Assembly: GCF_900232105.1 (NCBI RefSeq)
Contig: NZ_LT934425.1
Span: forward strand, 2,130,001 to 2,162,000
DNA: 32,000 bases
Source: Candidatus Kuenenia stuttgartensis
GTDB lineage: Bacteria; Planctomycetota; Brocadiia; Brocadiales; Brocadiaceae
Direction of reading: 5' to 3'
Part shown: positions 4,454 to 29,760 of the stretch, piece after piece
How the letters are laid out: the number at the start of each line of letters is the position of its first letter
Position numbering within the stretch: position 1 is the stretch's first letter
The notes under the pieces: generated by a model
Database searches by the model: none
What the model saw: the letters and a program-made list of their open reading frames with translations, nothing else
What the model was told of the DNA's origin: nothing
Translations under genes and position numbers: made by a program

Positions 4454-4480
4454 GTAGAGCGAAGAGACTCTTCGCTCTAC
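4454..4480. repeat. TGTAG-headed near-perfect 27-nt palindrome
   Basis: gtagagcgaagag-a-ctcttcgctctac. Confidence 0.7.
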
Positions 4481-4685
4481 ATTGGAAGATTGTCCATGGT
4501 TTATGTTTAAAAAATTCAATCATGGTTTACCCTTAGAAAAATGAGGTGCTGGGTGTGGGTAAAAATAAAAGTAGTTGGGTTTTTGTCTTTTAAAACCCTC
4601 CCTATTTTACTGGAGATCAATCTTATTATTGCCACTGGCACACATTGCCTGTTATTTTGAAATTGCACTACCAAGAGTGATAAAT

Positions 4686-14101: not shown

Positions 14102-14106
14102 GGAAT

Positions 14107-14775
14107 ATGGGTAAGATTGTTACAATTCATCAGCCTGATTTTTTACCATGGCGAGGCTTTTTTGATCGCTGGGGAAAAAGTGATTTGTATATTGTTCTTG
14201 ATGACGTGCAATTTCTCCGAAGAGGTTGGCACCACAGAGATAAAATCAAAACAAAAGATGGCGTAAAATGGTTGACTGTACCTGTTAAAAAAAAGGGCAA
14301 ATATGATCAACTTATACTGGAGGTAGAGATAGATTACAGCACAGATTGGCAAGCCAAGCACTTGAAAACTATTGAAGTTAACTATAAGAAAGCTCCGAAC
14401 TTTGAATATTATTTTGATAAATTGAAATCAATATACGTAAAAAAACACGATCTTCTAATAGATTTAAATATGGATTTATTGATATTTGTTGCGGAAGAAC
14501 TTGGGATAGATACTCCCGCTGTTTTTGCTTCTAGCTATAATGTGAATTCAAATTCAACTGAAAGGCTAATTGAATTGGTTAAGGCAGTAGGAGGTAATGA
14601 ATATTTAACAGGGACTGGTTCCAAGGGGTATCTCAATGAAAAACTTTTTCAAAGAAAAGGTATAAGGGTCGTCTGGCAAAATTACGAGGAGACTTTTTAT
14701 AAACAGTTGCATGAAGATTTTGTTCCACACCTTTCAGGGTTAGACTATCTAATGATGAAATGCAAAAATGACTGA
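14107..14775 (+). CDS. WbqC-family protein (function unknown, polysaccharide loci)
   Basis: IHQPDFLPWRGFFDRW...LDDVQF... resembles the WbqC N-terminal signature. Confidence 0.65.
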   Translation: MGKIVTIHQPDFLPWRGFFDRWGKSDLYIVLDDVQFLRRGWHHRDKIKTKDGVKWLTVPVKKKGKYDQLILEVEIDYSTDWQAKHLKTIEVNYKKAPNFEYYFDKLKSIYVKKHDLLIDLNMDLLIFVAEELGIDTPAVFASSYNVNSNSTERLIELVKAVGGNEYLTGTGSKGYLNEKLFQRKGIRVVWQNYEETFYKQLHEDFVPHLSGLDYLMMKCKND

Positions 14776-15436
14776 CATGAAATGCTATAGTTCAAATAGA
14801 TTTAAAGTTTCCATTTTGGTGGATGACCCCAGTTCATGGATAGTCCCATACGTAGAGAGTTTAAGTGTAAGAATTGGTGAGCAAAACGACGTATCTCTTT
14901 ATTTTAATGCATATGATATAGTGGAAGGTGATTTTTTATTTCTGCTTGGATGCACTTCTATTATACCCAAACAAGTTTTAAATAAGAATAAACATAATTT
15001 GGTTGTGCATGAAAGCGATCTTCCAGAAGGAAGAGGATGGTCTCCGGTAAGCTGGCAAGTATTGGAAGGGAAAAACAGGATACCTATCGTATTATTTGAA
15101 GCTGAAGAAAAACTAGATTCAGGCAGAATTTATTTAAAAGACTATATAGAACTTGATGGCACAGAACTTCTACCAGAAATCAAAAAAAAGCAGGGAGATA
15201 AAACTATTGATTTAGTGCTGACCTTCCTAAATCAATGGCCTGACCTGCAGCCTTCGGGACAGATAGGAATGCCCTCTTATTACGAAAAGAGAACCACAAA
15301 GCATGATGAACTCGATATAAGTAAAAGCATCATCCAAAACTTTAATCATCTTCGTATTATTGATAATGAAAAACATCCTGCATGGTTTCAACTAAATGGA
15401 CACAAATATATATTAAAAATATATAAAACAGACTAA
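14768..15436 (+). CDS. Formyltransferase-family protein (Fmt/PurN-like N-domain)
   Basis: NLVVHESDLPEGRGWSPVSWQVLEG matches the H-x-S-L-LP-x-x-RG formyltransferase catalytic loop. 8-nt overlap with the upstream gene. Confidence 0.7.
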   Translation: MTDMKCYSSNRFKVSILVDDPSSWIVPYVESLSVRIGEQNDVSLYFNAYDIVEGDFLFLLGCTSIIPKQVLNKNKHNLVVHESDLPEGRGWSPVSWQVLEGKNRIPIVLFEAEEKLDSGRIYLKDYIELDGTELLPEIKKKQGDKTIDLVLTFLNQWPDLQPSGQIGMPSYYEKRTTKHDELDISKSIIQNFNHLRIIDNEKHPAWFQLNGHKYILKIYKTD

Positions 15437-15451
15437 TATTCAAGGAGTTTA

Positions 15452-16486
15452 TTGGTGAAAACAATTTCTATCGGAAAATTCATAATAGGCTTAAATGAGC
15501 CTTGTCTCATACTCGCTGAACTCGGTGCTATGCAGGAAGACCTTAATGGGATGAAGAAACTAATTAAGGTTTCAAAAGAAGCCGGTGCCGATGCTGTAAA
15601 GATTCAAACTTACAGGGCAGAAACTATTGCCCATCCATCGGCAGAATTCGAATTTGAAGATGGCTCCAAGATGTTTCAAATGGAGTTCTTTAAAAAACTT
15701 GAAATTTCTCAAGACGACCATAAAGAGCTATTTGATTATGCAAGAGAGCTTGGGATTGCTATTTTTTCGACACCCAGTTACTATGATGATGTTGACTTTC
15801 TTGAAGAGTTGGGTGTGCCAGCTTACAAGACGGGTTCTGATGACTTAACTAATCGCCCTTTCCTTGAATATATCGCACGAAAGGGTAAGCCTATGATTGT
15901 ATCTACAGGTATGTCAACTCTGGCAGAGGTCGAAGAAGCGGTAGAAACAATTTTAAAGACTGGAAATGATCAGTTGGTTCTTCTTCACTGTACGACATCT
16001 TATCCGCCTGCTCCTGAATTTGCCAATCTTAATGTTATGAACACCCTCCGCTCTGCCTTTGACGTTCCCATTGGATATTCAGACCATGTTGCGGGTATTT
16101 TTTCTTCAATACTTGCTGCCAGTATGGGTGCCTCTGTTATTGAAAAGCATATAACCCTGGATCGAAAATCGAAAAGACCTGACTGTGAGGTATCGATAGA
16201 ACCATCAGAGCTAAAGGAGATGGTTGAACAAATTCGTTTAATACCTATTCTTCAGGGAAGCTCGATAAAGAAAATATATCCTTCTGAGAAGAAGTGGCGC
16301 AGGAATGGAAGAAAAAGCCTTGTAGCAAATCGTAATTTAAAATGTGGCGATGTTATTGGAAAAGAAGACCTGAAAATAATCAGGCCTGGAACGGGAATAC
16401 CTCCCAGATACATGGATTTCATCGTTGGCAAGACCTTAAAAAAGGACATTAGTGAAAATGAAATAATTCCTCATGATGCCTTTTAA
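15452..16486 (+). CDS. Nonulosonic acid synthase (NeuB/PseI/LegI/SpsE-like, with C-terminal SAF domain)
   Basis: CLILAELGAMQEDLNGMKKLI...GADAVKIQTY...YKTGSDDLTN...GYSDHV...IEKHITLDR plus a C-terminal SAF-like segment. aaggag lies upstream; the start may be the GTG at 15455 rather than the TTG at 15452. Confidence 0.85.
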   Translation: MVKTISIGKFIIGLNEPCLILAELGAMQEDLNGMKKLIKVSKEAGADAVKIQTYRAETIAHPSAEFEFEDGSKMFQMEFFKKLEISQDDHKELFDYARELGIAIFSTPSYYDDVDFLEELGVPAYKTGSDDLTNRPFLEYIARKGKPMIVSTGMSTLAEVEEAVETILKTGNDQLVLLHCTTSYPPAPEFANLNVMNTLRSAFDVPIGYSDHVAGIFSSILAASMGASVIEKHITLDRKSKRPDCEVSIEPSELKEMVEQIRLIPILQGSSIKKIYPSEKKWRRNGRKSLVANRNLKCGDVIGKEDLKIIRPGTGIPPRYMDFIVGKTLKKDISENEIIPHDAF

Positions 16487-17201
16487 GCCAGATTTCAATA
16501 CAGAAGTTGTAGTAATACTCCAAGCCCGCACAGGTTCTACGAGGCTACCAAATAAGGTTTTGAGATGTTTGGCGGGTAGACCAATGTTGTCGCATTGTAT
16601 TCAAAGGCTTAAGAGAATTGGTGATGGATATCACGTAATCGTAGCAACCTCTACCCTGAATAGAGATTATACTTTGGAGAAATTGGCAATTAAAGAAGGA
16701 GTATTATGTTACAGGGGGGGTGAGAAAGATGTTCTTGATCGTTACTACCATGCAGCGAAATCTGCAGGGGCTAAATTTGTGATCAGGGCAACTGGTGACA
16801 ATCCGTTGGTATGCCCTGAAGAGGCAAAAAGAGTTGTTGAATGCATAACAAGTCAAAAAGTGGATTATGTAACCGGGATAGAAGAAGTAGAAGGTTTAAA
16901 ACTACCGACAGGTGTCGGCGTAGAGGCGTTCACTTTTAAAGCGCTTGAACGATCATGGTTAGAAGGTAACAAAGAGCATCACCGTGAACATGTTAACGAA
17001 TATATTCTTGAGAATCCTGGAATTTTTAGCATAGTCAGGCTCTCCTGTATGCCCCAAAATAGTTGCCCCGAACTCAGTCTGACAATTGATACTAATGATG
17101 ATTTTGAATTTATTGAGGAGATGTTAAGCGGTTTTATTAAGCCTGCAACCGAGATAACTACATCCGAGATTATTAAATGGTGGAGAAAAAGAATAAACTG
17201 A
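16473..17201 (+). CDS. Cytidylyltransferase (SpsF/FlmC-type, putative CMP-nonulosonate synthetase)
   Basis: VVILQARTGSTRLPNKVL..L.GRPML is the SpsF-type CTP-transferase opening. 14-nt overlap with the synthase gene. Confidence 0.75.
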   Translation: MMPFKPDFNTEVVVILQARTGSTRLPNKVLRCLAGRPMLSHCIQRLKRIGDGYHVIVATSTLNRDYTLEKLAIKEGVLCYRGGEKDVLDRYYHAAKSAGAKFVIRATGDNPLVCPEEAKRVVECITSQKVDYVTGIEEVEGLKLPTGVGVEAFTFKALERSWLEGNKEHHREHVNEYILENPGIFSIVRLSCMPQNSCPELSLTIDTNDDFEFIEEMLSGFIKPATEITTSEIIKWWRKRIN

Positions 17202-18220
17202 TAGTTTTTCGCCTTGATGCTGGTCATGAAAGGGGAATGGGGCATCTGTACCGTATGATGACCCTGGCAGATGAATTTAGAAGAAAAGGGCATGACTGTC
17301 TGTTTGTATTAAAAAGAAATGATGTGGCGTCAAGAATTCTTGACAGCGTAAAGTTTAGATGTCTATCTTATCCAGTACATCTTACAGAAGAAGATATAGT
17401 AGAAAAATACTTCAAAGACGAGTTGGAACCTGATCTTTGGATATTTGATATTCTCTCCACTGACGAGACGTTGGTTGTACGGACTAAATCCATGGGGGTA
17501 CCTGTTGTATCATTTGATGATTTAAAGGGTGGTTTGCTCCATGCGGATCTTGTTGTGAATGCCATTGCAGGTTGCTGGGATGAGGAAAGTAAGGTCTCAG
17601 GGCGTATTCCACATGTATTAAGCGGGCCTCGATACGCAATTATTACGTCTGATATAATTAATCTGAAATACAAGAAAAAAATGCCTCAAGAAGACATTAG
17701 GATTGGGGTAACAATGGGAGGAAGTGATACACATGGCGCTACAGTAAAGATTGGACAAGTATTATCCCGTTTTGATGAAAAAGATATGTATGTGAATTTT
17801 TTTCTCGGACCACATTTCATGCATGACATTGAGATGGATGAGATGCTAGCAGCATTTTCACATCCATTTACCGTGAAAAAAGGGGTTTCGGATTTGTATG
17901 TAGAGTTGATTAATAATAATTTGGTCATATGCGGAGGCGGGCAAACTATGTTTGAGTTGTGCTCAATGGGAATGCCTGTTATGGCTCTGGCAAATGAGGT
18001 TCATGAAGAAAAGACCATTAGATATTTTGAGCGCAATGGAGCATGCATCGATATAGGTTCCGTTCATAAGGAACTTGATGATGAGAAGATGTGTAAGTTT
18101 ATTGATGAGATCAAGTACGATTTGGATAAACTGAACCGGTTGGCAGTGAATGCTGTCCAATTAGTTGACGGTAAGGGAACCAAGAGATGTTACAGTGCGT
18201 GTGCAGTCTTAATCAACTAA
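17177..18220 (+). CDS. PseG/SpsG-like nucleotide-sugar hydrolase (GT-B fold)
   Basis: LIVFRLDAGHERGMGHLYRMMTLADEF mirrors the PseG opening (R-x-DA-x-x-x-G-x-GH-x-x-R-x-x-x-LA). C-terminal GGGQTMFELCSMGMP is a GT-B-type motif. Confidence 0.7.
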   Translation: MVEKKNKLIVFRLDAGHERGMGHLYRMMTLADEFRRKGHDCLFVLKRNDVASRILDSVKFRCLSYPVHLTEEDIVEKYFKDELEPDLWIFDILSTDETLVVRTKSMGVPVVSFDDLKGGLLHADLVVNAIAGCWDEESKVSGRIPHVLSGPRYAIITSDIINLKYKKKMPQEDIRIGVTMGGSDTHGATVKIGQVLSRFDEKDMYVNFFLGPHFMHDIEMDEMLAAFSHPFTVKKGVSDLYVELINNNLVICGGGQTMFELCSMGMPVMALANEVHEEKTIRYFERNGACIDIGSVHKELDDEKMCKFIDEIKYDLDKLNRLAVNAVQLVDGKGTKRCYSACAVLIN

Positions 18221-18227
18221 GATATTT

Positions 18228-19280
18228 ATGATGCTTCAGAAAATAAAAGTAAATTCATTCCAGAAAAGGTTCGATAGCCGGTGGAGAAACTTTATTTTTA
18301 ACTGGAATCAAGGGAATATTATAAAATATTACTTGAACAGATACCAGTGGAACATGTATCCAAAGATGGGCAAGGTATCAGCCTTTCCTCTCCATGTCGA
18401 CATTGAGACGACGGCCAAATGCAATTTGCGTTGCGGCATGTGCCCCAGCCGGGAGCTTTCGAAAGAAAAGTATGGTGAATACGGTAATATGAAGATGGAA
18501 CTTTTCAGGAAACTGGTCGATGAATGCACAGAGAATAAGGTTTTTTCCATCCGCCTAAGCTGGAGAGGAGAGGTTTTAATCAATCACGATCTTGTCAAAT
18601 TTGTTCACTATGCAAAGGTTGTCAAGAAGATTCCAAATGTTTCTTTTTTGACCAATGGCAGTCTTTTAAAGGGAGAACTTGCCGAGAAGTTAATAGATTA
18701 TGGTGTCGATTATATTTCGGTATCTATTGACGGTATGGATGGTATGTACGAGAAGATACGGTATCCGTTAAAGTTCCGATCAATTTGTGAAAACCTGAAA
18801 AATTTCAAGGAATTGAAGAGGAAAAAAGGGAAGAAGAAACCTGTTATCCGTGTAACAACCCTGTGGCCTGCTATTGCTCAAGATCCTGAAGCCTTCTATA
18901 CGCGAATGAGCTCTATATGTGACAAGATTGTTTATAACCCGCTGAAAGACTACAGCATCACTGAACCTCAGAAAAAGGATTTTATTTGCCAGTTTCCGTG
19001 GGAGAGGCTGTTTGTAGGTTTTGATGGAAAAGTACAGCCGTGTAGCATAACGACAGACAGTTTTGTCATTGGTGATACAAATAAAAACAGTTTGAAGGAT
19101 ATTTGGCAAAGTACCGAAATGAACGATTTAAGGAATGTCCATTCAAAAATTAAGCGTATGGATGTAATCCCCTGCAATAAATGTAGCTATGGCATTGATT
19201 ATTCTAAATTATGGGAAGGTAGGGACTGGACCAAATGGAATCCTGAAGAACTAAATCAATTGAGTAAGGGAAACCAATAG
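18228..19280 (+). CDS. Radical SAM enzyme with SPASM-like C-terminal Cys motifs
   Basis: TTAKCNLRCGMCPS contains CxxxCxxC. Further Cys residues lie in CQFPW...VQPCS...IPCNKCSY. Confidence 0.75.
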   Translation: MMLQKIKVNSFQKRFDSRWRNFIFNWNQGNIIKYYLNRYQWNMYPKMGKVSAFPLHVDIETTAKCNLRCGMCPSRELSKEKYGEYGNMKMELFRKLVDECTENKVFSIRLSWRGEVLINHDLVKFVHYAKVVKKIPNVSFLTNGSLLKGELAEKLIDYGVDYISVSIDGMDGMYEKIRYPLKFRSICENLKNFKELKRKKGKKKPVIRVTTLWPAIAQDPEAFYTRMSSICDKIVYNPLKDYSITEPQKKDFICQFPWERLFVGFDGKVQPCSITTDSFVIGDTNKNSLKDIWQSTEMNDLRNVHSKIKRMDVIPCNKCSYGIDYSKLWEGRDWTKWNPEELNQLSKGNQ

Positions 19281-19282
19281 CC

Positions 19283-20167
19283 ATGGATATTGAAAAAATG
19301 AAGGCTGAAGTCAAGGCTTCCAAAATAGAAATCAATGAACTTCCCAGATATTCGCCATGGCCATCAAGATTATTTGGTCTTTCTGATTGGGATATAAAAC
19401 ATCGAAACAATGTTATAGTTTCGCATGAATATGGTGAAAAATGGGGTCGCTTGTTGTCTAAATATCAAGAAAGAAAATTCACTAACATAAACGAAGTACT
19501 TCACTACCTCTTTGATACACACTTTTCTGACAATATACTGTTTCATATATATGAGAATATCTATTATTCTGCAAATACGCCAGTTTTTTGGGATTTTTTC
19601 TACAATCAGATTATTCAGGCTATTACAAGGTATTTAACACCAAACGATACATTAGTTGAAATGGGTTGTGGTTGGGGAAGAAACCTTTTTACCTTATATC
19701 AACGTAAATTATTTAAAAATGCCATTGGTGGAGAATTTACACAGGAGGGGATAACACTTGGAAATCTCATTGCTAAAGAATTTAATGTGCCATTAGAGTT
19801 CTTTCACTTTGATTACTATAACCCCAAACAGGAATTTATGGAGAAGATCAACGGTACAGTAGTTTTTTCCCACAATAGCATAGAACAGATTACTCAAATG
19901 CCACAAAAAACTATTTTATCATTGATTGAAAACAGACCTAAGATTGTCTTTCATTTTGAACCTATATACGAATATCGAAACAAGGATACCCTTCTTCATT
20001 ATATGTGGAAACGGTATACTCAAGTAAACGAATATAATATTAATCTTTTGACTTTATTAAAGGATTTTGAAAAGAAAGGCCAAATAAGGATTGATCTAGA
20101 AGTTCCTCATGTCCTGGGACTCAATGCCTTTAATCCTGGAAGTTTTATAGTGTGGCAGCCTATTTAA
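19283..20167 (+). CDS. Class I SAM-dependent methyltransferase
   Basis: LVEMGCGWGRNL glycine-rich motif I. 2-nt gap from the upstream gene. Confidence 0.6.
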   Translation: MDIEKMKAEVKASKIEINELPRYSPWPSRLFGLSDWDIKHRNNVIVSHEYGEKWGRLLSKYQERKFTNINEVLHYLFDTHFSDNILFHIYENIYYSANTPVFWDFFYNQIIQAITRYLTPNDTLVEMGCGWGRNLFTLYQRKLFKNAIGGEFTQEGITLGNLIAKEFNVPLEFFHFDYYNPKQEFMEKINGTVVFSHNSIEQITQMPQKTILSLIENRPKIVFHFEPIYEYRNKDTLLHYMWKRYTQVNEYNINLLTLLKDFEKKGQIRIDLEVPHVLGLNAFNPGSFIVWQPI

Positions 20168-20168
20168 T

Positions 20169-21227
20169 ATGAAAAATCTTTTTATTATAGGCATATTCAG
20201 ATCTGGAACATCTTTGCTCTCAACAGCATTGAATACGCACAAAAATATAATTGTCGGCTGGCAACCTTACATGTTGTTTTTTAAGGCTTGCCGAAACAAG
20301 TATTTTAAAGAGATGTTGAGGGTTCCCTTTGATGAAAAAAACCCTATGGGTATTAATTACTTTAAGACAGTAAAAGATAGAGAACTTTTTCGTGAAGTTT
20401 TTCATTTAATCAGGTTCAATGCTACGGAACTCAGCACTATATTGTCTGAAATTAGGGACTACCTCCTCAGCGATAATGAGAAGATGAATAAAGATATGAA
20501 GCCACATGATCTGGCAAAAAATCTTGACGGTATAGAACCGGGATTCGCCGGGTATATATTAATGCAGTTAATGGAAAGATTATATCTCTCACAAATAATT
20601 ACACGTAATTGGGATATTAAATTTATAGGAATCAAAGAGGTTTTTTGTGAAGAATTTATTGAACCATTATTTAATTATTGCAACTTGAATTCAAAAGTTG
20701 TTCACATAATAAGAGATCCCAGAGCAGTGGTTGCATCCAGAAATTTTGGGAAATATATGGAAGCAACAGGCGCAAAGTACCCCATCTTTTTCATCATCAG
20801 GAGTTGGAAAAGAACAGTGGCAAACTATCTACTAAATAAATGTAATAGCAACTATTTAATGATAAGGTATGAAGACTTAGTTAGAAAGCCTGAAACAACA
20901 ATGAAAAAAGTTTGCGAGCTACTGGAGGTTCAATATTCAAATGACCTATTAAATTTAAGCAACTTTAAGGACAATAAAGGAAGAAGATGGGAATCGAACA
21001 CTTCATTTGATGGTTCTAAAACCATAACCACTTCGTCTGTGAACAAATGGGAAGATATTTTATCTGCCGAAGAAATTGAAGTTGTTGAGTATTATTGTCA
21101 ATCTGAGTTAAATACTTTAGGATACGAAAGAACAACAAAAAGCTTTGATCAAAAAAAAATTTTAAATTTCCAAGAGGATACATCAAACATTTGTGAATGG
21201 TTAAGGGAATATGATTTTAGTTTTTGA
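20169..21227 (+). CDS. PAPS-dependent sulfotransferase-family protein
   Basis: IIGIFRSGTSLL (5'-phosphosulfate-binding loop) and IIRDPRAVVAS (3'-phosphate-binding motif). Confidence 0.7.
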   Translation: MKNLFIIGIFRSGTSLLSTALNTHKNIIVGWQPYMLFFKACRNKYFKEMLRVPFDEKNPMGINYFKTVKDRELFREVFHLIRFNATELSTILSEIRDYLLSDNEKMNKDMKPHDLAKNLDGIEPGFAGYILMQLMERLYLSQIITRNWDIKFIGIKEVFCEEFIEPLFNYCNLNSKVVHIIRDPRAVVASRNFGKYMEATGAKYPIFFIIRSWKRTVANYLLNKCNSNYLMIRYEDLVRKPETTMKKVCELLEVQYSNDLLNLSNFKDNKGRRWESNTSFDGSKTITTSSVNKWEDILSAEEIEVVEYYCQSELNTLGYERTTKSFDQKKILNFQEDTSNICEWLREYDFSF

Positions 21228-21378
21228 AACATATCTTAACAAGTTATTGTAAAATTGGTGAAGTAATTGTTTTTATAAACTGCATGAAGGTGAATCCTGC
21301 TGGATTATTGGTAATAGTCCCTCTATAAATCAGACAAACCTTCTAATGTTAAAAGGTAGTGTTGCTTTTGCTGTTAAC
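21064..21378 (+). repeat. Copy A of a diverged direct duplication spanning the sulfotransferase 3' end, the intergenic spacer and the first ~32 codons of the downstream transferase gene
   Basis: Colinear with 22316..22662. Copy A lacks a ~32-bp stretch (ctgaataaaaaagaaatagaaagattaagaga) that contains the transferase start codon. Scattered substitutions throughout. Confidence 0.85.
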
Positions 21379-21767
21379 GAGGGGAACAGGGTTACATCTG
21401 GACATTTGATTTTGAGGAAAAACTTGCTTTCATAAGTTGCATTCAACTTTCAAAAGAAGTTTCAACAGAGTATTGGACAGCACTCAAAGAAATTTTCAAA
21501 AAATCAAAAAACGAAAGTTTTATACTTGCATTAGACAAAGTGACTAAAGAAATATGAAACGAAATACTTTGGAACATAAAAGAAGCCCAGCAGATAACAG
21601 CACCTACCCCAAAATGGCTGTTCAGTGGTTAATTAAAGCTTTGTACATCTATCAAAGTTCTGTGCAGTTTGATAGTTTAGTGCTTCGAAATCGCCACCTT
21701 CGGGTAGCTGTAAACTGTTACCTGCCATTTTAGAGAGACAACAAAACAACTAAGAGAGAATTAAAAA

Positions 21768-22274
21768 ATGATATCAATGCAATATCCTGAACGACATAGC
21801 AATCATACTTTAGAGCAGAAATCGGAGACCTTTTTTATGCAACATTTACCGCAGGATTGGATTGCAACGACACCCAAAAAGGACTACGGACAAGATTTGA
21901 ATTTGGAAATATGTGAAGAAGGACAATATCGTAGCTTGGATTTGATAGTTCAATTAAAATCATCTGCGACAAGCAATATTCTAAATAATAGAGAAAGACA
22001 TCAACTAAAGGTTTCAACTTACAATTATTTATGGGACAATCTTAGGGTTGTTCTCATTGTAAAATATATTGAAGATGAAAATGAAGCATATTGGACACTT
22101 TTAAAAGATGTTGAACCGCCAGCAAATCCTGAACAAGAAAATTTCATGATTTATTTCCCACGGCAAAATAAACTCTCTGAAATTAACTGGAGCGACATAA
22201 TTAACTATGTAAGACAAGTTACAGACAAAAAATTAGCATCAACGAGAGCAAAGAATAAACAAAATCACAGCTAA
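21768..22274 (+). CDS. DUF4365-like restriction-endonuclease-fold protein
   Basis: E.KSETFFMQHLPQDWIATTPKKDYGQDLNLEI....LDLIVQLKSS fits the DUF4365 pattern (DyGiD...vQlK). Confidence 0.6.
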   Translation: MISMQYPERHSNHTLEQKSETFFMQHLPQDWIATTPKKDYGQDLNLEICEEGQYRSLDLIVQLKSSATSNILNNRERHQLKVSTYNYLWDNLRVVLIVKYIEDENEAYWTLLKDVEPPANPEQENFMIYFPRQNKLSEINWSDIINYVRQVTDKKLASTRAKNKQNHS

Positions 22275-22315
22275 ACATTGAGGTAATGAGACTAGCAAAC
22301 AAAATACTTGCTTAG

Positions 22316-22479
22316 CTGCCGAAGAAATTGAAGTTGTTGAGTATTATTGTCAATCTGAGCTAAATACTTTAGGATACGAAAGGACAACAAAAAGCTTTGA
22401 TCAAAAAACAATTTCAAATTTCCAGGAGGATAAATCAAAAATTTCTGAATGGTTAAGGAAATATGATTTTGGTTTTTGA
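22316..22479 (+). pseudogene. Orphan 3' fragment of the sulfotransferase gene
   Basis: Translates AEEIEVVEYYCQSELNTLGYERTTKSFDQKTISNFQEDKSKISEWLRKYDFGF*, paralogous to the last ~54 aa of 20169..21227. No upstream coding part. Confidence 0.8.
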
Positions 22480-22662
22480 ACCATATCTTAACGAGTTATT
22501 GTAAAATTGGTGAATTAATTGCTGAATAAAAAAGAAATAGAAAGATTAAGAGATTTTTATAAACTGCATGAAGGTGAATCTTGCTGGATTATTGGTAACG
22601 GTCCTTCCATCAATCAGACAAACCTTTTAACGTTAAAAGGTAGCGTTACTTTTGCGGTTAAT
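22316..22662 (+). repeat. Copy B of the diverged direct duplication (see 21064..21378)
   Basis: Begins ctgccgaagaaattgaagttgttgag and ends ...tttgcggttaat. It includes the functional 5' end of gene 22519..24384. Confidence 0.85.
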
Positions 22663-24384
22663 GCTTTTATTACCCATAAAAACTTTGAGAGGCTTCTACC
22701 AACCTATTATGTAGCTACTAATCCACGATTGATGCGGTCTGATTTCCTCAAAGATGACCTAATTCCCAGGTTGCAGAAAAATGATATTACTTGTTTTTTA
22801 AACTGTGAAGCAAAACCAATAATCGGCCATCCTTATGAGAGTCTATACTATATTGAAACTACTGAGTCGCCGTTAATTGTTGATGCTGGCTATAATCTGG
22901 ATATTACAAAACGTTTACATGGAACTCGGGTATCTGTTGTTATTCAGGCTGTGATTCCAATAGCCGTTTATATGGGATTTAAGCAAATTTTTTTAGTGGG
23001 TTGCGACAATGACTATAAAGATTTGAGTATGGAAAAAGCACATTTTTACGGAACTGCTGAACACTGCCCCAACCTTTTGAAATTAAACAACACAGCCAGA
23101 GAGTTATATCCAAGTTATTTTATAAAAAAGGAAACTACGGCCATACAGAATTCGCTCGATGGTAACGAAGAATTTTCCATTGTATATCGTGAAGTAAAAA
23201 AATTAGGCGTAAAAATATATAACTGTACAAAAGGTGGAAAACTTGAGGTATTTCCCAGACTCCGGTTTGAGGACGTCGTCAAAAAAACCACATTAAATCG
23301 CATAATTCTGCACTCATCCCCTCTGCGCAAGATTGATAAATGTTGTGCGGAACAACTGCTGCCGGCATACCATTCTATTGTAATATCAAATATTGACAAA
23401 AACTTCGATTACGGTGAAATGCCTGTGTATGAGCAGGAAATACTGTGCAAGTTAATAAAAAATCAAAATCCAAAAACAATTTTTGAAATCGGCACCTTTC
23501 AGGGAGCAACCACAACCCACCTTGCAGCAAATAGCGATGCAATTGTATATACGCTCGACCTGCCACCAAAGGGCCACATAGATTATCACCCTCCAGATAT
23601 GAATGATCCTGAACTGGACGTTTATCCTGATCAACCAGGCATTAAACATTTCTCAAGCGCGTATGCAGACAGAATCACACAACTATATGGAGATACCCGC
23701 AGTTTCGATTATTCATCATATTACGGGCAGATGGATATTGTATTTGTTGATGGCTGTCATCATTACGACTTCGTACTAAGAGACAGTCTGAATGCTTTCA
23801 AAATGATTAAACCTGATGGGATGATTATCTGGCACGATTATGCTGATTACGCACCGGGTGTAATGAAGGCACTGAACGTTATCAGCGAGAGATACTCACT
23901 AACGCATATTGAAGGAACCAGTTTGGTTGTATATTCCGGAAAATGGGGAGAAATAGACAACAAATCTGAAATAAATACCTCAATATCAGCATACAGTGAA
24001 ACAGAATTATTCAATATGGTTCAAAAAATGATCGATGAAAAAAACTTTGCGTTGGCTAGAACAACTGTCTCAAAGTCGCTTGAAATGTTTCCTGCTTCAG
24101 TTAACCTGCTTTATGCAAAAGCCAAAATAAACATTGAAACAGGCCACATTGATGAGGCGCAGATAACTCTATTAAAAATAATAGAAATTTCACCAGAAAA
24201 TCTTAATGCCTTAAACGGTTTGGCTTCTATAGAAATAAACAAAGGAAATATAGAAGCTGCAATAGAATTCTTAAGAGACATATTGATTCTTGAACCGAAT
24301 AATCAAGCAGCACTGGCGCTTATTTCCGATATTAAAACGAAGTTACTTAGTCTTTCACATGCTAAGAAGGAGAATTTATATTGA
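22519..24384 (+). CDS. Three-domain protein: GNGPS-motif DUF115/MptE-like (Maf / sialyltransferase-like) domain + class I SAM methyltransferase (Methyltransf_24-like) + TPR repeats
   Basis: N-terminal domain: CWIIGNGPSINQTNL...VIPIAVYMGFKQIFLVGCDNDY. Middle domain: IFEIGTFQGATTTHLA...IVFVDGCHHYDFVLRDS...PDGMIIWHDY. C-terminal domain: TPR-like repeats (LEMFPASVNLLYAKAKINIETGHIDEA...EPNNQAALALI). TTG start with ggtga upstream. Confidence 0.7.
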   Translation: MLNKKEIERLRDFYKLHEGESCWIIGNGPSINQTNLLTLKGSVTFAVNAFITHKNFERLLPTYYVATNPRLMRSDFLKDDLIPRLQKNDITCFLNCEAKPIIGHPYESLYYIETTESPLIVDAGYNLDITKRLHGTRVSVVIQAVIPIAVYMGFKQIFLVGCDNDYKDLSMEKAHFYGTAEHCPNLLKLNNTARELYPSYFIKKETTAIQNSLDGNEEFSIVYREVKKLGVKIYNCTKGGKLEVFPRLRFEDVVKKTTLNRIILHSSPLRKIDKCCAEQLLPAYHSIVISNIDKNFDYGEMPVYEQEILCKLIKNQNPKTIFEIGTFQGATTTHLAANSDAIVYTLDLPPKGHIDYHPPDMNDPELDVYPDQPGIKHFSSAYADRITQLYGDTRSFDYSSYYGQMDIVFVDGCHHYDFVLRDSLNAFKMIKPDGMIIWHDYADYAPGVMKALNVISERYSLTHIEGTSLVVYSGKWGEIDNKSEINTSISAYSETELFNMVQKMIDEKNFALARTTVSKSLEMFPASVNLLYAKAKINIETGHIDEAQITLLKIIEISPENLNALNGLASIEINKGNIEAAIEFLRDILILEPNNQAALALISDIKTKLLSLSHAKKENLY

Positions 24385-24722
24385 CAAGACTTGAAGCCTG
24401 GTTTCATACAGTTAATGCCTATAAAGTCCGATATGAAGAACTCTATTCTAATCCTGTGGAAACTCTCAAAGGTATTGAAGAAGATAGAATTTCAGAAATT
24501 GTGGCAAAAAATTCTTTTAGCAAGAAAGCAGGCCAAATACCTGGAGAGGAAGCAAAAGATTCCCCTGCGAGAAAAGGAATTGTTGGAGATTGGAAAAACT
24601 ATTTTGATGCTGAGTGTGTTTCTACCTTTAAAGCGGCATATAATGGGCGTTGGAATAAATTGCTTATAGAACTTGGATATGAGAATTCTAAAAACTTGCA
24701 AAATAATAAAATTACAGAATAG
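24381..24722 (+). pseudogene. C-terminal half of a Sulfotransfer_1-like sulfotransferase (N-terminal PAPS loop missing)
   Basis: VRYEELYSNP...ARKGIVGDWKNYFDAE...LGYE is the C-terminal signature (RKGxxGDWKNxF). The ORF starts at a TTG overlapping the upstream stop (TTGA). No 5'-PSB motif. Confidence 0.6.
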
Positions 24723-24749: not shown

Positions 24750-25387
24750 ATGATGCTTAATGTTTCCATAATAATCCCAACACGGAATCGGGCAAAAGAC
24801 CTCAAAGTTGCTTTACCCCCGCTTCTCAATCAGGATTACCCCATATTAGAATACGAAATCATTGTAGTGGATGACGGCTCAACGGGCAACACAAGAGAGA
24901 TAACAGAACGGGCTGCATTATTAAATAAAAATAATATCAGATATATAGTCAAACAAATAAGGTTTTCGAAAAATTTACACCTCCCGTCCCTTCTATAAAG
25001 AGGGAATTAAGGGGCGTGCTTGTATAGTATGCTTAGTCAAATAAATCTGTTTTTTAGAAAGCCATTTTATTGCCAAATTCCTAAAATCATATTTGTTTGG
25101 CTATATATATTAGCCAGAACCCGGGCTCCTATCCGGCAGACATTGAGGGGCATCGGAAGCAAAGGGAGAAATTCTTGTCTTTGTCGATGATGGTATTGAG
25201 GCGGTCAACGGGTGGTTATCGTCAATAATGGCGGAATTCGAAAATGAGCCAGTTCACATGTGGTTGGAGGTACCAGTCTTCCCAGGTATGAAGTTGACCC
25301 TCCCAAATGGATCGATAAATATTGTTCCTGGAAAGATGATCAATTAACATGCGGCTCACTGAGTCTCCTAAATAAGGGAAAAGAAAG
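24750..25387 (+). pseudogene. Decayed 5' copy of the GT2 glycosyltransferase gene (paralogue of 28366..~28835)
   Basis: IIIPTRNR...YEIIVVDDGSTGNT...ERAALLNKNNIRYI, then a 154-bp MITE. Homology resumes at 25102 with a 1-nt insertion (cacatgTggttgg) that shifts the frame, and ends at ~25387. Confidence 0.85.
24948..25101. mobile_element. 154-bp MITE inserted in the GT2 pseudogene
   Basis: Ends are gtcaaacaaata... and ...tatttgtttggc (12-bp TIR, 11/12). Comparison with the uninterrupted paralogue (cagatatatatatgagccagaac at ~28548) shows a clean insertion into a TA repeat with ~6 bp of extra TATATA. Confidence 0.8.
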
Positions 25388-25403
25388 GAAAAGGAAATAT
25401 ACA

Positions 25404-25637
25404 ATGACTACTAAAAAGGAATCACTTACTTATAATGACTATGTAAGGGGAATTCAAGATCTAAGACCAGAGGATCAATTAAGTTTAGTTGAAATCATCT
25501 CTGCCGGGCTGAAAAAAACTCTTATGAAAAAAAGGGCTAAACATAGAATTACTGAAATTGAAGGATTGGGGGCAGACATTTGGAAAGGCATCGATGCGCA
25601 GGAATATGTTCGTAAGGAGAGAGAATCTTGGGATTAA
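25404..25637 (+). CDS. Small antitoxin-like protein (orphan; no cognate toxin ORF follows)
   Basis: 77 aa, with aaggaaa upstream of the ATG. ...EDQLSLVEIISAGLKK...ITEIEGLGADIWKGIDAQEYVRKERESWD* resembles small VapB-type partners of PIN toxins as I recall them. The track ORF 25260..25637 fuses it in frame to GT2 debris. Confidence 0.4.
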   Translation: MTTKKESLTYNDYVRGIQDLRPEDQLSLVEIISAGLKKTLMKKRAKHRITEIEGLGADIWKGIDAQEYVRKERESWD

Positions 25638-25843
25638 TTGATGAACGAAACATTTGCCGGTTTGAGGAATATCCCGCCAGCATCCTTGCCGGCGGGAGGT
25701 CAGGCGCAGGGATGCTCCTGATACTATGCACACAACTATGCCGTGTTATGGCAATGTTTTGCCCCTTACATTAATGCGGCATATCGTTATTGTCGGAATT
25801 TTTCAAAAAGTTAAAGTGTTGCAATATTACAGAAAGATCATCA

Positions 25844-26872
25844 ATGGAAATAATCAATCCACACGACAAATTCTTCAAAGAGACATTTTCCATCCGGGAA
25901 AATGTAATCGATTTCCTTAGTGGTACATTTCCCTCAAAAATCCTGAAAAAACTGGATTTGTCCACTTTAACACAGGATAATAACTCATATATCGACGAAG
26001 AACACAAAGAACATTTCTCAGACATTGTATACACCTGTTTCTGTAAAGACAAAGAACTCCGGATAACCCTTTTATTCGAGCACAAGAGTTATGCCGTAGC
26101 ATGTCCGTATCTGCAGTTGATGAAATACCTTTTAAAGATATGGGAATCAAACAACAAGCAGGCGCAAAGACTCATGCCGGTAATTCCGGTGATATTATAT
26201 CACGGCAAAGATACGTGGAAAGCAAGAAGGTTCAGAGACTATTTTGAAGGGATAGACGAGGAATTTTTAAGATTTATACCGGAATTTGAATATCTGCTGA
26301 CAGACCTGAGTAGTTACAGCAATGAGGAAATAAAGGACAGGGTATTTAGAAGGGCATCCCTCCAAATAACCATGTTATTGATGAGGAACATATATAATGA
26401 CAAAATTCTGGGAGACAAGCTAAAGGTATTCTTTGAAATAGGGAGGCAGTATTTTGAAGAGGAAGGAGGGGTAAAATTTCTGGAAAGTGTAATCAGGTAT
26501 TTGTACTATGCATCGGATATAGAGGAAGAACGGGTAATAGACACCTTAAAAGAGATATCAGAGGAAGGAGGTAAATTAAGTATGACAATAGCGGCGAGAT
26601 TAATAGAAAAGGGTAAAATAACCGGTAGGATGGAAGGTCGGATGGAAGGCAGGGAGGAAGGCAGAGCGGAAGGTGCGATAGAGGGCGAGAGGAAGGGAAG
26701 GATAGAGGGTCTAATAGAGGCGATAGAGATAGGTTTGGAGCTAAAGTATGGAGTTAACGGTTTAAGGCTTCTGGAGCGTATCAGGAAAATAGCCGTGATA
26801 GAGAAGCTGGAGTCAATAAAAGAGGCGGTAAAGATATCAAAGAATATGGAGGAAATTGAAAAATTGCTCTAA
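25844..26872 (+). CDS. Rpn-family (YhgA-like, PD-(D/E)XK / Transposase_31) recombination-promoting nuclease, copy 2, intact
   Basis: The start at 25844 (MEIINPHDKFFKETF) was chosen by colinearity with copy 1. LLFEHKSY core, EG-repeat tail and a helical C-terminus. Confidence 0.85.
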   Translation: MEIINPHDKFFKETFSIRENVIDFLSGTFPSKILKKLDLSTLTQDNNSYIDEEHKEHFSDIVYTCFCKDKELRITLLFEHKSYAVACPYLQLMKYLLKIWESNNKQAQRLMPVIPVILYHGKDTWKARRFRDYFEGIDEEFLRFIPEFEYLLTDLSSYSNEEIKDRVFRRASLQITMLLMRNIYNDKILGDKLKVFFEIGRQYFEEEGGVKFLESVIRYLYYASDIEEERVIDTLKEISEEGGKLSMTIAARLIEKGKITGRMEGRMEGREEGRAEGAIEGERKGRIEGLIEAIEIGLELKYGVNGLRLLERIRKIAVIEKLESIKEAVKISKNMEEIEKLL

Positions 26873-26955
26873 ATTTTTGAGAGACCATATTTGTAACTAT
26901 TCAGCGTAAACGATACGCGGCTCGTTCCCAAACCTTGTACTGAACATAGTGAAGT

Positions 26956-27067
26956 ATCTGGCTCGAAAATAAGACTACAAAAAATAGCTCAAGTACAGGT
27001 ACCGCAATATGATATGGCTATAAAACCATTTTCATCGTTTCTGGGTGTTGCAAATGCAACAGGATGA
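26956..27067 (+). repeat. Interspersed ~110-bp repeat (partner of 1..110)
   Basis: See feature 1..110. Confidence 0.8.
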
Positions 27068-27229
27068 CTGTTTGGGAATGAAATTGCACTGGAAAACTCT
27101 GTTTCCAGTGAGGGTTTGACTTGACAAATTATAAACTGTCTGAATCATGTGATTTTATTCCCTATCTATCAACAGACAGGCGAGAAACCGGAGTTTGGGA
27201 ACGAGTTGCGCTTTGCACTCCGGTAGTTT

Positions 27230-27348
27230 GTAACAGTTCACTCTTTCCGGATTGTCTTGGTATTTGAAAAGTACCCACCCCTAGCCCCTCCCAAGAGGGG
27301 AATACAAAAAGTCCCCTCTTGGGGATTTAGGAGTGGGTGAACTGTTAC
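27230..27348. mobile_element. 119-bp MITE (family B) with 12-bp perfect TIRs and an 8-bp target duplication
   Basis: TIR is gtaacagttcac (27230..27241) / gtgaactgttac (27337..27348). Flanking direct repeats are ggtagttt (27222..27229) and ggtggttt (27349..27356). The interior is an imperfect palindrome: cccacccctagcccctcccaagagggga...tcccctcttggggatttaggagtgggtg. Confidence 0.75.
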
Positions 27349-27430
27349 GGTGGTTTGATAAATTATGCTGAATAGTTAACGTCAGTTAAGAATATGCAAA
27401 TAGAAAGAAATAATTCAGGAGGACATAAAA

Positions 27431-27748
27431 ATGAGTACTGATATTAAAGAAAAACTTGAAATACCTGATACGCTAAGAAATATTTATACGGAGATGGAAG
27501 TTTCTCCAATAGGGCTTTTAAAGAACTATGCTTTAAACCTTATTTTAAATAAAATTAATAAATATGAAGCAGAAAACGCATTCTTTGAGAAAAAGTATGA
27601 TTGCAAATACGAAGAATTCAAACATAAAGTCGAATCTATGGAAAAAGAAGAGAATTTTGAATGGGAAGACGATTTGATGGATTGGGAATTTGCGTTTGAA
27701 AATTTTAGATATTGGCAAAAAAAAGCCCATGAGATAAAAGGCGAATGA
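27431..27748 (+). CDS. Small acidic helical protein, putative partner of the downstream DUF6516-like gene
   Basis: aggagg lies 8 nt upstream of the ATG. The stop overlaps the next start (ATGA). No family recognised. Confidence 0.55.
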   Translation: MSTDIKEKLEIPDTLRNIYTEMEVSPIGLLKNYALNLILNKINKYEAENAFFEKKYDCKYEEFKHKVESMEKEENFEWEDDLMDWEFAFENFRYWQKKAHEIKGE

Positions 27749-28089
27749 AGGAAATACTCGACAAATATAAAGATATTATTAAAAAATATGAAATCCTTGT
27801 TTGGGACAGCGAACCACTGGCGTATCGTTTTAAGGCAATAATTACGTTTATGGATGATTCAAGACTTCTGATAAAGGATTATACCTTTCCCCACGGACGC
27901 AAATACTCTTTTCACTGGCAAGACAGAAATAGTCATTTAATAATTCGCTGGGACAATGCAATGCACTGGAAAGACATAGATACTTTTCCACATCACAAAC
28001 ATGAAAAGGCCTCCATATCTTCCTCAAAAGAAGTAACGCTGGAAGATATTTTGAACCATATTTATGAGATTTTGAATGATGGACACTGA
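27745..28089 (+). CDS. DUF6516-like (TumE-family-like) toxin-antitoxin component
   Basis: YSFHWQDRNSHLIIRWDNAMHW...TFPHHKHEKASISSS...LEDILNHI fits the DUF6516 pattern (RyDNapH...PHHkH). Confidence 0.55.
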   Translation: MKEILDKYKDIIKKYEILVWDSEPLAYRFKAIITFMDDSRLLIKDYTFPHGRKYSFHWQDRNSHLIIRWDNAMHWKDIDTFPHHKHEKASISSSKEVTLEDILNHIYEILNDGH

Positions 28090-28365
28090 TCAAAAATTAT
28101 CAATTACTCATATAGATACCCATGATAAAGCCGGTGGTACTGCAAAACAGGAAATACGTATTAAATTAAATATTAAAAGAGTGGTATACGAAAATATTTG
28201 CATTATTACGGATTGCAGAACCGAGGCTTTTCCAAAATGAGAACAGGGTCGATTTAAATTCCCCTCTGGTAGTCAAAGATAAAAAAACGGAAATAGTTAC
28301 AATGTCGAATTACAAAAAATCGGGAATGCTTCCCACTTCAATAGCCAATAAGACTGGAAAATGTA

Positions 28366-29760
28366 ATGAATGCATCAATAATAATACCAACACGCAATCG
28401 TTCAAAGTGGCTAACTTCCGCAATTCAATCTTTCGCAGAACAAGACTTTCCATCCTCTCAATATGAAATCATTGTAGTGGATAACGGCTCAACAGACAAC
28501 ACAGGGGAGATAACAGAACGAGCTGCATTATTAAATAAAAACAATATCAGATATATATATGAGCCAGAACCAGGGCTCCTATCCGGCAGGCATCGAGGAA
28601 TGTCGGAAGCAAAGGGAGAAATACTTGTCTTTGTCGATGATGATATTGAGGCGGTCAACGGGTGGTTATCGGCAATAATGGCGGAACTCAAAGATGAGTC
28701 AGTTCACATGGTTGGAGGTCCCAGTCTTCCCATGTATGAAGTTGACCCTCCCCAATGGGTCGAGAAATATTATTCATGGAAAGATGATCAATTAACATGC
28801 GGCTCACTGAGTCTACTAAATAAGGGAAAAGAAAGATTGGAAATAGATCCCGTATTTGTCTGGGGATTGAATTTTGCAATAAGAAAGAAAACGCTTTTTG
28901 ATTTAGGGGGTTTTCATCCGGATAATATACCAAAATCCCTACAACACTTTCAGGGCGATGGAGAAACCGGGCTGGCCCTGAAAATGAAAGGAAAAGGACT
29001 CAAGGCGGTCTACGCCCCTGGCGCAAAAGTATATCACCACATTCCACGGGAAAGACTCACCGTAGCCTATTTTGAAAAACGATTCTTTTATCAGGGTGTT
29101 TGTGATTCATATACACAAATAAGAAAAAATAAAGGGCTGTCAAATATAAAAATCCCTAACTACCAGATATTCGATCAATTCTTACCAAACGTCCCTGCTT
29201 ATGATCAATATAAACAAATTATCTATAAGCGGATTCATAATGCTTACGTTGATGGGTTTCTTTTCCATCAGGAGGCAGTACAAAAAAGTAAGACGCTTTT
29301 GAAATGGGTCTTGAAGGAAGACTATTTTGATTACCGACTCCCTGAGTTAAACCTACAAGAGCAACAACAAATTCAAGAGGTGAGTGATCGTATCCAAAAA
29401 CGCTCCACACACCTACAATGGCCACGGACTACGGCTCAGGATATGTTCAAGGATGCCTTTAACCTTATTAATTCTGACGACATGGTTACCGCTCTATCTA
29501 AATTAGATACCATGGTACATCAATATCCAAACATGCCGAAAGTGCATCTAACCCGTGCTTTGTGTCTGTCTGCACTTGACCGCCCACGGGAAGCAGTACG
29601 TGCTGCCATTGCTGAATTAACTATTCAGCACGATAATAAACAGGCAGTAGATATATTATTGAAAAATCAACAGGTGTTATTAGAAGAACTGAAGACTGCA
29701 CCCCAAGCGGCAGTTCGGCTTGTTGAACGTATACTAAAGTCCAGACTTAACCGGGTTTGA
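28366..29760 (+). CDS. Family 2 glycosyltransferase with a C-terminal TPR-like extension
   Basis: IIIPTRNR...IIVVDNGSTDNT...ILVFVDDD (DxD), followed by a ~100-aa helical repeat tail (DMVTALSKLDTMVHQYPNMPKVHLTRALCLSALDRPREA). Confidence 0.8.
   Translation: MNASIIIPTRNRSKWLTSAIQSFAEQDFPSSQYEIIVVDNGSTDNTGEITERAALLNKNNIRYIYEPEPGLLSGRHRGMSEAKGEILVFVDDDIEAVNGWLSAIMAELKDESVHMVGGPSLPMYEVDPPQWVEKYYSWKDDQLTCGSLSLLNKGKERLEIDPVFVWGLNFAIRKKTLFDLGGFHPDNIPKSLQHFQGDGETGLALKMKGKGLKAVYAPGAKVYHHIPRERLTVAYFEKRFFYQGVCDSYTQIRKNKGLSNIKIPNYQIFDQFLPNVPAYDQYKQIIYKRIHNAYVDGFLFHQEAVQKSKTLLKWVLKEDYFDYRLPELNLQEQQQIQEVSDRIQKRSTHLQWPRTTAQDMFKDAFNLINSDDMVTALSKLDTMVHQYPNMPKVHLTRALCLSALDRPREAVRAAIAELTIQHDNKQAVDILLKNQQVLLEELKTAPQAAVRLVERILKSRLNRV

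Follow-up and report, generated by a model that had tools for sequence, protein, structure and literature searches.

How did a small nuclease gene come to lie between two diverged copies of one and the same gene junction? This question is raised by a locus in a 32,000-nt stretch of the chromosome of Candidatus Kuenenia stuttgartensis (the window, G000:C1:2130001-2162000, from the closed 4.4-Mb single-contig chromosome of the source genome, G000), where a mosaic nonulosonic-acid/glycan gene cluster carries a 937-bp insert with a gene of the DUF4365 family. The insert is bracketed by two direct repeats, copies A and B, each consisting of the end of a sulfotransferase gene, a spacer and the beginning of an MptE-like gene. 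In the reading that we favor, with a probability of roughly 60%, the insert is not an element in its own right but the scar of illegitimate and homologous recombination, through displacement or patch repair, which was later homogenised. The features on which the argument turns are as follows.

20169..21227, + strand: sulfotransferase gene, alpha allele, intact, 352 aa (Pfam Sulfotransfer_1 and Sulfotransfer_3, E 1e-16)
21064..21378, + strand: repeat copy A, comprising the sulfotransferase tail, a spacer (21228-21269) and an orphan MptE-like head (21271-21378)
21381..21557, + strand: open reading frame (ORF) X, headless 3' end, 58 codons and stop, no Pfam family
21592..21723, + strand: attC-type imperfect inverted repeat, 132 nt (DNA fold and covariation)
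21718..22274, + strand: 5' part of the DUF4365 cassette, with a conserved 5' leader (TTACCTGCCATTTT...) and an intact ORF (Pfam PF14280)
22288..22479, + strand: orphan sulfotransferase tail, remnant of the beta allele, ~63 codons and stop (tblastn, 77% identity to sulfotransferase residues 291-352)
22316..22662, + strand: repeat copy B, comprising the sulfotransferase tail, a spacer that includes the 32 nt gone from copy A, and the first 48 codons of the MptE-like gene
22519..24384, + strand: MptE-like (GNGPS), Methyltransf_24 and TPR gene, intact, 621 aa (Pfam)

Two alleles of one gene junction

Copies A (21064-21378) and B (22316-22662) are colinear direct repeats, with 937 bp (21379-22315) between them. 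The first-pass annotation had described such repeats, with scattered substitutions and an indel of about 32 bp, and alignment bore this out: a segment of 210 nt (21060-21269 versus 22312-22521) matches at 93% identity and another of 108 nt (21270-21377 versus 22554-22661) at 90% (self-BLAST E 3e-86 and 2e-34), with a 32-nt segment confined to copy B (22522-22553) falling between the two. The first 44 nt of the copies (21064-21107 and 22316-22359) are free of any difference. The partition of the genes was also described correctly: copy A keeps the sulfotransferase and has lost the start of the transferase that follows, and copy B keeps the intact MptE-like gene along with an orphan sulfotransferase tail. 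Copy A opens with the final 55 codons of the 352-aa sulfotransferase (21063-21227) and ends in an MptE-like head of 36 codons without a usable start, in which the 32-nt deletion has shifted the retained TTG out of frame and the GNGPS motif has degenerated into GNSPS. The intact 621-aa MptE-like protein occurs with the same sequence on at least 23 public contigs. Within the orphan tail, the two copies differ by 11 nucleotide changes that produce 8 amino acid changes, being mostly non-synonymous.

The left edge of copy B proved informative. Diverged sulfotransferase codons (KQNTCLA...) extend this copy leftward by another ~25-30 nt, to ~22288, and therefore the edge at 22316 is that of a high-identity (converted) tract, not an insertion joint. 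The same codons recur upstream of copy A in a Logan contig (L020, from SRR21120498) and, in a genome from a different genus of the same family (G010), in an orphan tail that follows WbqC and stands without cargo. When the six copies from the source genome, Ca. Kuenenia hertensis YC6 (G003, same genus) and L020 were aligned, two haplotypes, alpha and beta, became apparent in the sulfotransferase tail. K. hertensis has the alpha haplotype in copy A and the beta haplotype in copy B (89%/87% identity), and in the source genome, the first ~100 nt of copy B are alpha-like, which raises the identity to 93% and makes the 44-nt identical core. L020 is mosaic in both places, with copy A beta and then alpha, and copy B alpha and then beta. 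From these mosaics, we infer that the alpha-like start of copy B in the source genome arose through gene conversion by copy A. A metagenome-assembled genome of K. stuttgartiensis (GCA_002632395.1, L022/L055), otherwise without differences from the window, carries, at the first two positions of copy A that tell the copies apart (21108 and 21131), the bases of copy B, reflecting either a gene-conversion polymorphism or a consensus artefact between the repeats. Because the alpha and beta haplotypes are shared across the source genome, K. hertensis, L020 and G010, the two copies are remnants of two alleles of the sulfotransferase-MptE junction and not a fresh duplication, in agreement with the earlier proposal that one copy is of different origin. 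The alpha allele supplies the working sulfotransferase, and the beta allele supplies the working MptE-like gene.

The same tails are crossover points for swaps of glycan blocks between strains and genera. In L020, a Kuenenia-type contig, the module (21195-22359, 1165 nt) shows 5 differences (99.6% identity), and the DUF4365 ORF is identical to that of the window. The left flank of L020, which encodes radical-SAM, NeuB, WbqC and other proteins, has no DNA similarity to the window and is 95% identical to G010 over 6.1 kb, the switch falling in the tail at ~21170-21195; on the right, the contig switches at 22359/22360 to another tail allele, which is followed by an 883-aa gene. Both switches lie inside the tails, and thus whole glycan blocks have been swapped by homologous crossovers in short shared segments. 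The 6.1-kb block common to L020/L057 and L058 (G010:C59:8047-15673) is a nonulosonic-acid block with radical-SAM, NeuB, CMP-transferase and WbqC genes and a decayed sulfotransferase tail. Its 95% identity points to a recent transfer of a glycan block between genera.

The insertion itself is old. K. hertensis is collinear with the window over 13.4 kb (10963-24348) at 95% identity and carries the insert and both repeat copies, with divergence spread evenly across them and with substitutions of its own in all three. Five NCBI assemblies, one JGI contig and one ENA contig also show this arrangement, with essentially no differences. Every copy A (source genome, K. hertensis and L020) has the 32-nt deletion and the same right-hand joint, and therefore the event happened once, before these lineages split, that is, before the divergence of the K. 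stuttgartiensis-like and K. hertensis lineages. An empty site was found neither in any assembly examined nor in 88 genomes of the order; a contig scan for such a site returned K. hertensis as the sole close MptE relative, and the 26-mer from the repeat core had 0 exact matches in a metagenome-contig scan whose coverage may not extend to near-identical records.

A putative fragment of an integron cassette array

Three items occupy the 937 bp that separate the copies, namely, the 58-codon end of a headless ORF, a hairpin and the DUF4365 gene. The first-pass annotation had recognized this content, with a leader in front of the nuclease gene; it missed that the leader corresponds to an attC-type hairpin. 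As attC criteria, we used an imperfect inverted repeat of ~57-141 nt, pairing between R'' (...AAC) and R' (GTT...) boxes, and unpaired bases before the L boxes. The 132-nt repeat at 21592-21723 has the appropriate length and boxes: R'' (AGATAAC, 21592-21598) and R' (GTTACCT, 21717-21723) pair at 6 of 7 positions, followed inward by an unpaired TAAA and then by CTACCC/GGGTAG and TGGC/GCCA helices, and its structure is conserved while the sequence varies. In an alignment of 6 sequences from ~4 lineages, one of which was the source of the structure, 81.7% of the cells are paired, compared with 21-42% when the partner is slid; compensatory changes on both sides are seen in 10 of the 22 pairs, and the observed value was reached in none of 500 shuffles. 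This signal emerged only with related sequences, the single-sequence RNA folding z-scores being unremarkable (-0.05 and -1.5), and a search of Rfam returned no family at the gathering threshold for the hairpin, with only noise at E<5. An ORF of 59 aa (21554-21733) spans the hairpin; it has no homologues and is most likely spurious.

The relatives of the DUF4365 gene locate the recombination point. In all close relatives, the common sequence begins exactly at GTTACCTGCC, 58-65 nt upstream of the ATG, and in the window, this places the cassette boundary, G|TT, at 21717|21718. Contigs L032/L036 and L033/L035 are identical at 60 of 60 positions downstream of GTT and at only 5 of 21 upstream (L032 versus L033), and L030 and L031 likewise agree at 60/60 positions downstream and 12/30 upstream. 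In five relatives, the first 10 nt of the cassette recur, exactly as their reverse complement, a short way past the last gene, and this complementarity between start and end co-varies over four sequences (GTTACCTGCC, GTTATAAGCC, GTTAGCAGCA and GTTAGCTGCT). DNA homology of the relatives with 78-83% identity to the window is confined to 21624..22274, that is, it starts at 21624 at most and runs to the stop codon. The DUF4365 cassette of the window has no 3' attC of its own, with only a doubtful GAGGTAAT 5 nt after the stop, and therefore the window holds a fragment and not a complete cassette. Together, the R''/R' boxes, the covariation, the breaks at G|TT and the complementary starts identify the cargo, as far as sequence comparison can, as a piece of a cassette array with the order [3' end of X]-attC-[DUF4365 cassette without its own attC].

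ORF X stops 35 nt upstream of the hairpin and is best interpreted as the final part of the integron cassette that precedes the DUF4365 cassette. Its best homologue among 1.84 billion proteins searched with HMMER is a 76-aa protein (76% identity, E 4e-13), with further matches to the C-terminus of a 198-aa protein and to a 54-aa protein; a word-indexed protein search produced no candidates, and the ORF was not found in the 87 other genomes of the order searched. Three differences separate it from its K. hertensis counterpart, all of them non-synonymous. The possibility that ORF X is the C-terminus of a lost Abi_alpha partner of the nuclease was set aside for lack of tblastn similarity. The left joint, which is illegitimate, falls inside ORF X at 21379-21380, and the right joint with the cassette lies within 22275-22287, ~10 nt past the DUF4365 stop. 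Neither joint is at a core site, and therefore the integrase did not place the fragment. Insertion by IntI at a secondary site, GTTAA (21373), was likewise rejected, given that the headless upstream ORF means that the joint is not a cassette boundary.

An intact integron integrase gene is nevertheless present in this genome (G000:2802206-2803507, locus L082 12207-13508; TIGR02249, 411-426 bits, cut-off 265), as already mentioned in the literature (PMC3607928). It lies 650 kb from the fragment, which itself is not located in an intI/attI array. The cassettes of this integrase are on the - strand (L082 ~10100-11820), where the first cassette has a GTTAGGC core upstream of it and a 200-aa ORF is followed by a canonical GCCTAAC...GTTATAC attC, and these attC sites differ from the hairpin family at 21592-21723, of which no other copy was found in this genome. 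With intI 650 kb away and this attC family nowhere else in the genome, the fragment is foreign. Fragments of IntI pseudogenes occur elsewhere in the genome (for example, at 1541392, 3777159 and 4386729). Within the window, several strong palindromes of the AAC...GTT kind (61-151 nt, as low as -0.31 kcal/mol per nt) are found between genes at 3840-4511, near an Rpn-like fragment, and could be attC-like or resemble repetitive extragenic palindromes or miniature inverted-repeat transposable elements (MITEs). Compared with integron cassettes, clusters of attC sites lacking integron integrases (CALIN) and solo attC sites, the locus is alike in the 132-nt inverted repeat, the AAC/GTT boxes and the maintenance of structure over sequence, and its relatives behave as cassettes, breaking at G|TT, starting with a complement of their own attC and carrying one or two genes without a promoter. 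The Kuenenia locus differs in that it has a single attC, that its upstream ORF is headless and that its cassette lacks an attC, all within a glycan operon. Defense-type cargo has been reported for sedentary chromosomal integrons (10.1101/2024.07.02.601686).

The DUF4365 ORF (21777-22274) encodes 165 aa, or 168 aa from an alternative start at 21768, and matches PF14280 over residues 16-145 with 59.1 bits (cut-off 24.3, E 6e-16). Among 21 homologues, D36, D40, Q59 and K61 are invariant and E13 is conserved in at least 90%, and the protein of the window keeps all five. An AlphaFold2 model of the protein (predicted local distance difference test score 89.9, predicted TM score 0.83) has SPARDA (DNase-associated short prokaryotic Argonaute) nuclease chains as its top 14 PDB matches in Foldseek (E 2e-8 to 4e-4, TM 0.55-0.68), followed by I-Ssp6803I and Hjc, in accord with an intact predicted nuclease of the PD-(D/E)XK, DREN-like type. 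The ratio of non-synonymous to synonymous substitution rates (dN/dS) is 0.23, compared with 0.31 for the sulfotransferase gene against K. hertensis, indicating, for a small sample, that the gene is apparently kept intact by purifying selection. It is probably read through from the glycan operon.

The DREN domain of SPARDA belongs to the same Pfam family, offers the closest structure and shares the E...D...QxK residues retained in the Kuenenia protein; in the SPARDA papers, this domain (DUF4365) is described as a collateral DNase effector. The Kuenenia protein differs in that it stands alone at 165 aa, without an APAZ domain or an Argonaute neighbor, its neighbors being the sulfotransferase remnant and the MptE-like gene. 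More than 100 DUF4365 relatives of ~160 aa were found, mostly from Bacteroidota where named, and the plasmid collection contained matches at 30-36% identity only. These relatives sit in defense neighborhoods with defense-type partners: at 55-83% identity, a partner gene usually begins 1-4 nt past the DUF4365 stop, encoding a 212-aa Abi_alpha/PDC-S47 protein, a 267-aa PD-Lambda-3_B-like HEPN protein (E 4e-79) or PDC-S32. The Kuenenia protein resembles these two-gene DUF4365 and HEPN/Abi_alpha modules in matching PDC-M02A in PADLOC (E 4e-8), but has no partner: a tblastn search of 21200-22700 with the Abi_alpha and 172-aa partners found nothing, and the sulfotransferase tail starts at most 13 nt past the DUF4365 stop. 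A single-gene DUF4365 cassette with 82% identity does exist (L016, ENA ERZ27228644, 4815-5539), and therefore the loss of a partner in Kuenenia is not certain. In L016, a tyrosine recombinase is encoded directly upstream, co-oriented with the first cassette (176 bits), and in L017 (GCA_964387075.1), the cassette lies beside another tyrosine recombinase (201 bits), both scoring as integron-integrase-like yet below the cut-off of 265.

How the insert may have formed

The history that we consider most plausible would have begun with foreign DNA landing in the MptE-like gene, the cassette-array fragment being joined illegitimately on its left to codon ~37 of the old MptE-like allele. An incoming allelic segment with the beta tail and MptE would then have restored or displaced the gene through one homologous and one illegitimate joint, in the manner of homology-facilitated illegitimate recombination (HFIR), leaving the old head and the new tail as orphans; on its right, the fragment is joined to codon ~288 of an old sulfotransferase allele. 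Later, the copies would have exchanged sequence by gene conversion, giving rise to the 44-nt identical core. The orphan ends beside an intact allele and the crossovers within the shared segment are as would be expected of an HFIR scar. HFIR-like displacement has been proposed for the orphaned 3' ends in type VI secretion system (T6SS) effector-immunity arrays and in Rhs/contact-dependent inhibition (CDI) loci (PMC5361080), which are similar to the present locus in the orphan gene ends next to an intact allele, the combination of one homologous with one illegitimate joint and the mosaic alleles across strains. The Kuenenia locus differs from those scars in that its genes modify glycans and do not encode toxins or immunity proteins, that its orphans include a 5' head as well as a 3' tail, and that integron DNA is trapped between them.

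Several points weigh against this reconstruction. The ancestral state, empty or intermediate, was found in no genome, so that the order and number of the events are reconstructed. The same final picture would result from a circle that entered by a single Campbell-type crossover, or from a tandem duplication that received an insertion at its joint. For most relatives, the contigs are short and no integrase-proximal array was seen. The estimate of purifying selection is based on 16 substitutions.

The alternatives differ in what they demand of the repeats. An assembly artefact, that is, strain collapse or a chimeric join of two alleles, had been raised in the first-pass annotation as a refuting possibility, and the copies do differ as two strain alleles would, at a locus where short-read graphs tangle. 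It is excluded by the closed single-contig chromosome and by the identical structure in at least 7 independent assemblies, from NCBI, JGI and ENA, together with a second species that has its own substitutions. Campbell-type integration, in which a circle with the sulfotransferase tail, MptE head and cargo entered by a single RecA-dependent crossover and could loop out again as a 1252-bp circle to re-enter any sulfotransferase-tail locus, is also unlikely, although it would account for the direct repeats on either side of the cargo, which correspond exactly to the homology segment, for the L020 module being 99.6% identical while both flanks differ, and for the seemingly reciprocal L020 mosaics. 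Three Logan contigs (L026, L027 and L028) are exact 1282-nt rotations of 21064-22315 with a 30-nt end overlap, which at face value would suggest an excised circle. However, 1282 is 1252 plus k-1, and because the 44-nt exact core exceeds k = 31, such contigs, with their branches clipped, are the expected output of the assembly graph and not evidence for a circle; the same Logan runs hold a chromosomal B-side contig starting at 22330 or 22402, and none of the at least 7 larger-k assemblies has an empty site or a deletion allele. Moreover, a clean integration product would not have copy B running left past the repeat as diverged sulfotransferase codons, and an exchange of blocks with a locus of the G010 type, in which an orphan tail was already present, accounts for the left flank of L020. 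The locus resembles Campbell-type integration in the cargo between direct homology repeats and departs from it in that the repeats are old alleles of unequal extents. Homologous crossovers in the tail did occur, as L020 attests; the history proposed in the first-pass annotation, in which a cassette came in with homology on its flanks and a single crossover resolved it, is only one of several that fit. We consider it a long shot that the unit [sulfotransferase tail-MptE head-attC-DUF4365-sulfotransferase tail] moves between glycan loci by RecA-dependent loop-out and re-integration at resident tails, being retained because its orphan nuclease, and/or the resident integrase acting on the stranded attC, stimulates surface-glycan diversification.

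Formation in place, by a ~350-bp tandem duplication of the junction followed by insertion at the joint, or by one break-repair event with a very long target duplication, after which the copies drifted, would yield the observed layout (intact gene, orphan head, cargo, orphan tail, intact gene), and the mostly non-synonymous differences in the orphan tail (8 amino acid changes from 11 nucleotide changes) would suit such drift. We nonetheless regard it as quite improbable: the divergence is uneven, the alpha and beta blocks are common to several genomes and to a cargo-free orphan tail of another genus, the part of copy B upstream of 22316 is a much more diverged allele, the cargo would have had to strike the joint exactly, and the GT2 remnant downstream (described below) also begins as a different allele, with ~60% identity in the first 100 nt. 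Classical transposition, which had already been doubted, can be set aside, as the locus shows no short target duplications, no terminal inverted repeats at the cargo ends and no transposase in 21379-22315; nor does any evidence point to autonomous mobility. The further suggestion that nucleases drove the process, with DUF4365 (and the Rpn-like protein at the GT2 site) cutting nearby DNA, promoting its own capture or homing and creating the flanking duplications, fared poorly. In its favor, two PD-(D/E)XK genes lie within 5 kb, each in a bracketed insertion, the fold resembles the homing endonuclease I-Ssp6803I and Hjc resolvases, and for 2 of 5 Rpn-like paralogues, direct repeats lie close by on both sides; this last is weak evidence because ~100 loci in the genome have local diverged direct repeats. 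Nothing ties DUF4365 to the joints, which lie inside the cassette-array fragment and not at its ends; the gene is single-copy in the genome; and its relatives are integron cassettes with Abi_alpha or PD-Lambda-3_B-like HEPN partners, none of these relatives being flanked by host-gene duplications. A nuclease-driven origin therefore appears highly improbable, and recombinational scarring between alleles is the reading that we retain.

The GT2 site and the biology of anammox glycan loci

A second bracketed insertion follows at a glycosyltransferase family 2 (GT2) gene 3 kb downstream.

24381..24722, + strand: third sulfotransferase fragment, of another allele, with 113 codons from the C-terminal part only (Pfam Sulfotransfer_1, profile positions 155-248 of 255)
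24750..25387, + strand: GT2 5' remnant, upstream copy of the second bracketed insertion, split by a MITE
25388..28365, + strand: second cargo, with a 77-aa ORF, a Transposase_31/Rpn-like gene (25790-26872) and a TumE toxin pair (27431-28089) (Pfam)
28366..29760, + strand: intact GT2 gene, downstream copy of the second repeat (Pfam; 86% identical to the L020 GT2)

This site looks like a product of the same process. As had been noted in the first-pass annotation, the architecture recurs here: 24850-24947 and 25102-25387 match 28460-28835 at 91-94%, and the remnant starts as a different allele, with ~60% identity in its first 100 nt. In L020, the GT2 gene is uninterrupted. The 352-aa sulfotransferase does not match the third fragment at 24381-24722.

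The MITE that splits the GT2 remnant (24948-25101, 154 bp) has imperfect terminal inverted repeats of ~31 nt. Contig L021, otherwise 100% identical, lacks it, as do the intact GT2 copies, so that the site is found both filled and empty. Rpn (YhgA-like, Transposase_31) is the PD-(D/E)XK gene of the GT2-site insertion and belongs to a different family from DUF4365. Its five or six paralogues, with 84-91% amino acid identity, are located in the window at 597-1586, 3496-3621 and 25790-26872 and elsewhere in the genome at 819741, 1459469 and 2478661; their DNA homology ends exactly at the ORF ends, with no shared flanks or terminal inverted repeats, and the copy at 2478661 is bracketed by direct repeats of 95 nt (97%) and 505 nt (92%). 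A repeat family of ~110 nt, often in pairs 430-530 nt apart, is present at no fewer than 10 loci, including 1-110 and 26962-27074 in the window and, as pairs in the genome, 2129531/2129995, 694590/695019, 1000893/1001354, 3656115/3656571 and 4210300/4210759; it may be a small non-autonomous element.

The locus is a fresh example of known processes rather than a new kind of element. For annotation, the leader of the DUF4365 gene becomes an attC-like site, the flanking pieces become pseudogene remnants, and the 59-aa ORF becomes spurious. A caution also follows for assembly graphs: where the exact core of a direct repeat is longer than k, k=31 contigs whose ends overlap can pass for circles.

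The insert clearly illustrates integron DNA left stranded a long way from its integrase, and the small DUF4365 nuclease genes, alone or with an Abi_alpha or HEPN partner, as putative integron cassettes, add to the view that integrons store defense genes. In the surface-glycan loci of anammox bacteria, short conserved gene ends act as crossover points for block swaps, even between genera, and each round leaves orphan ends behind.

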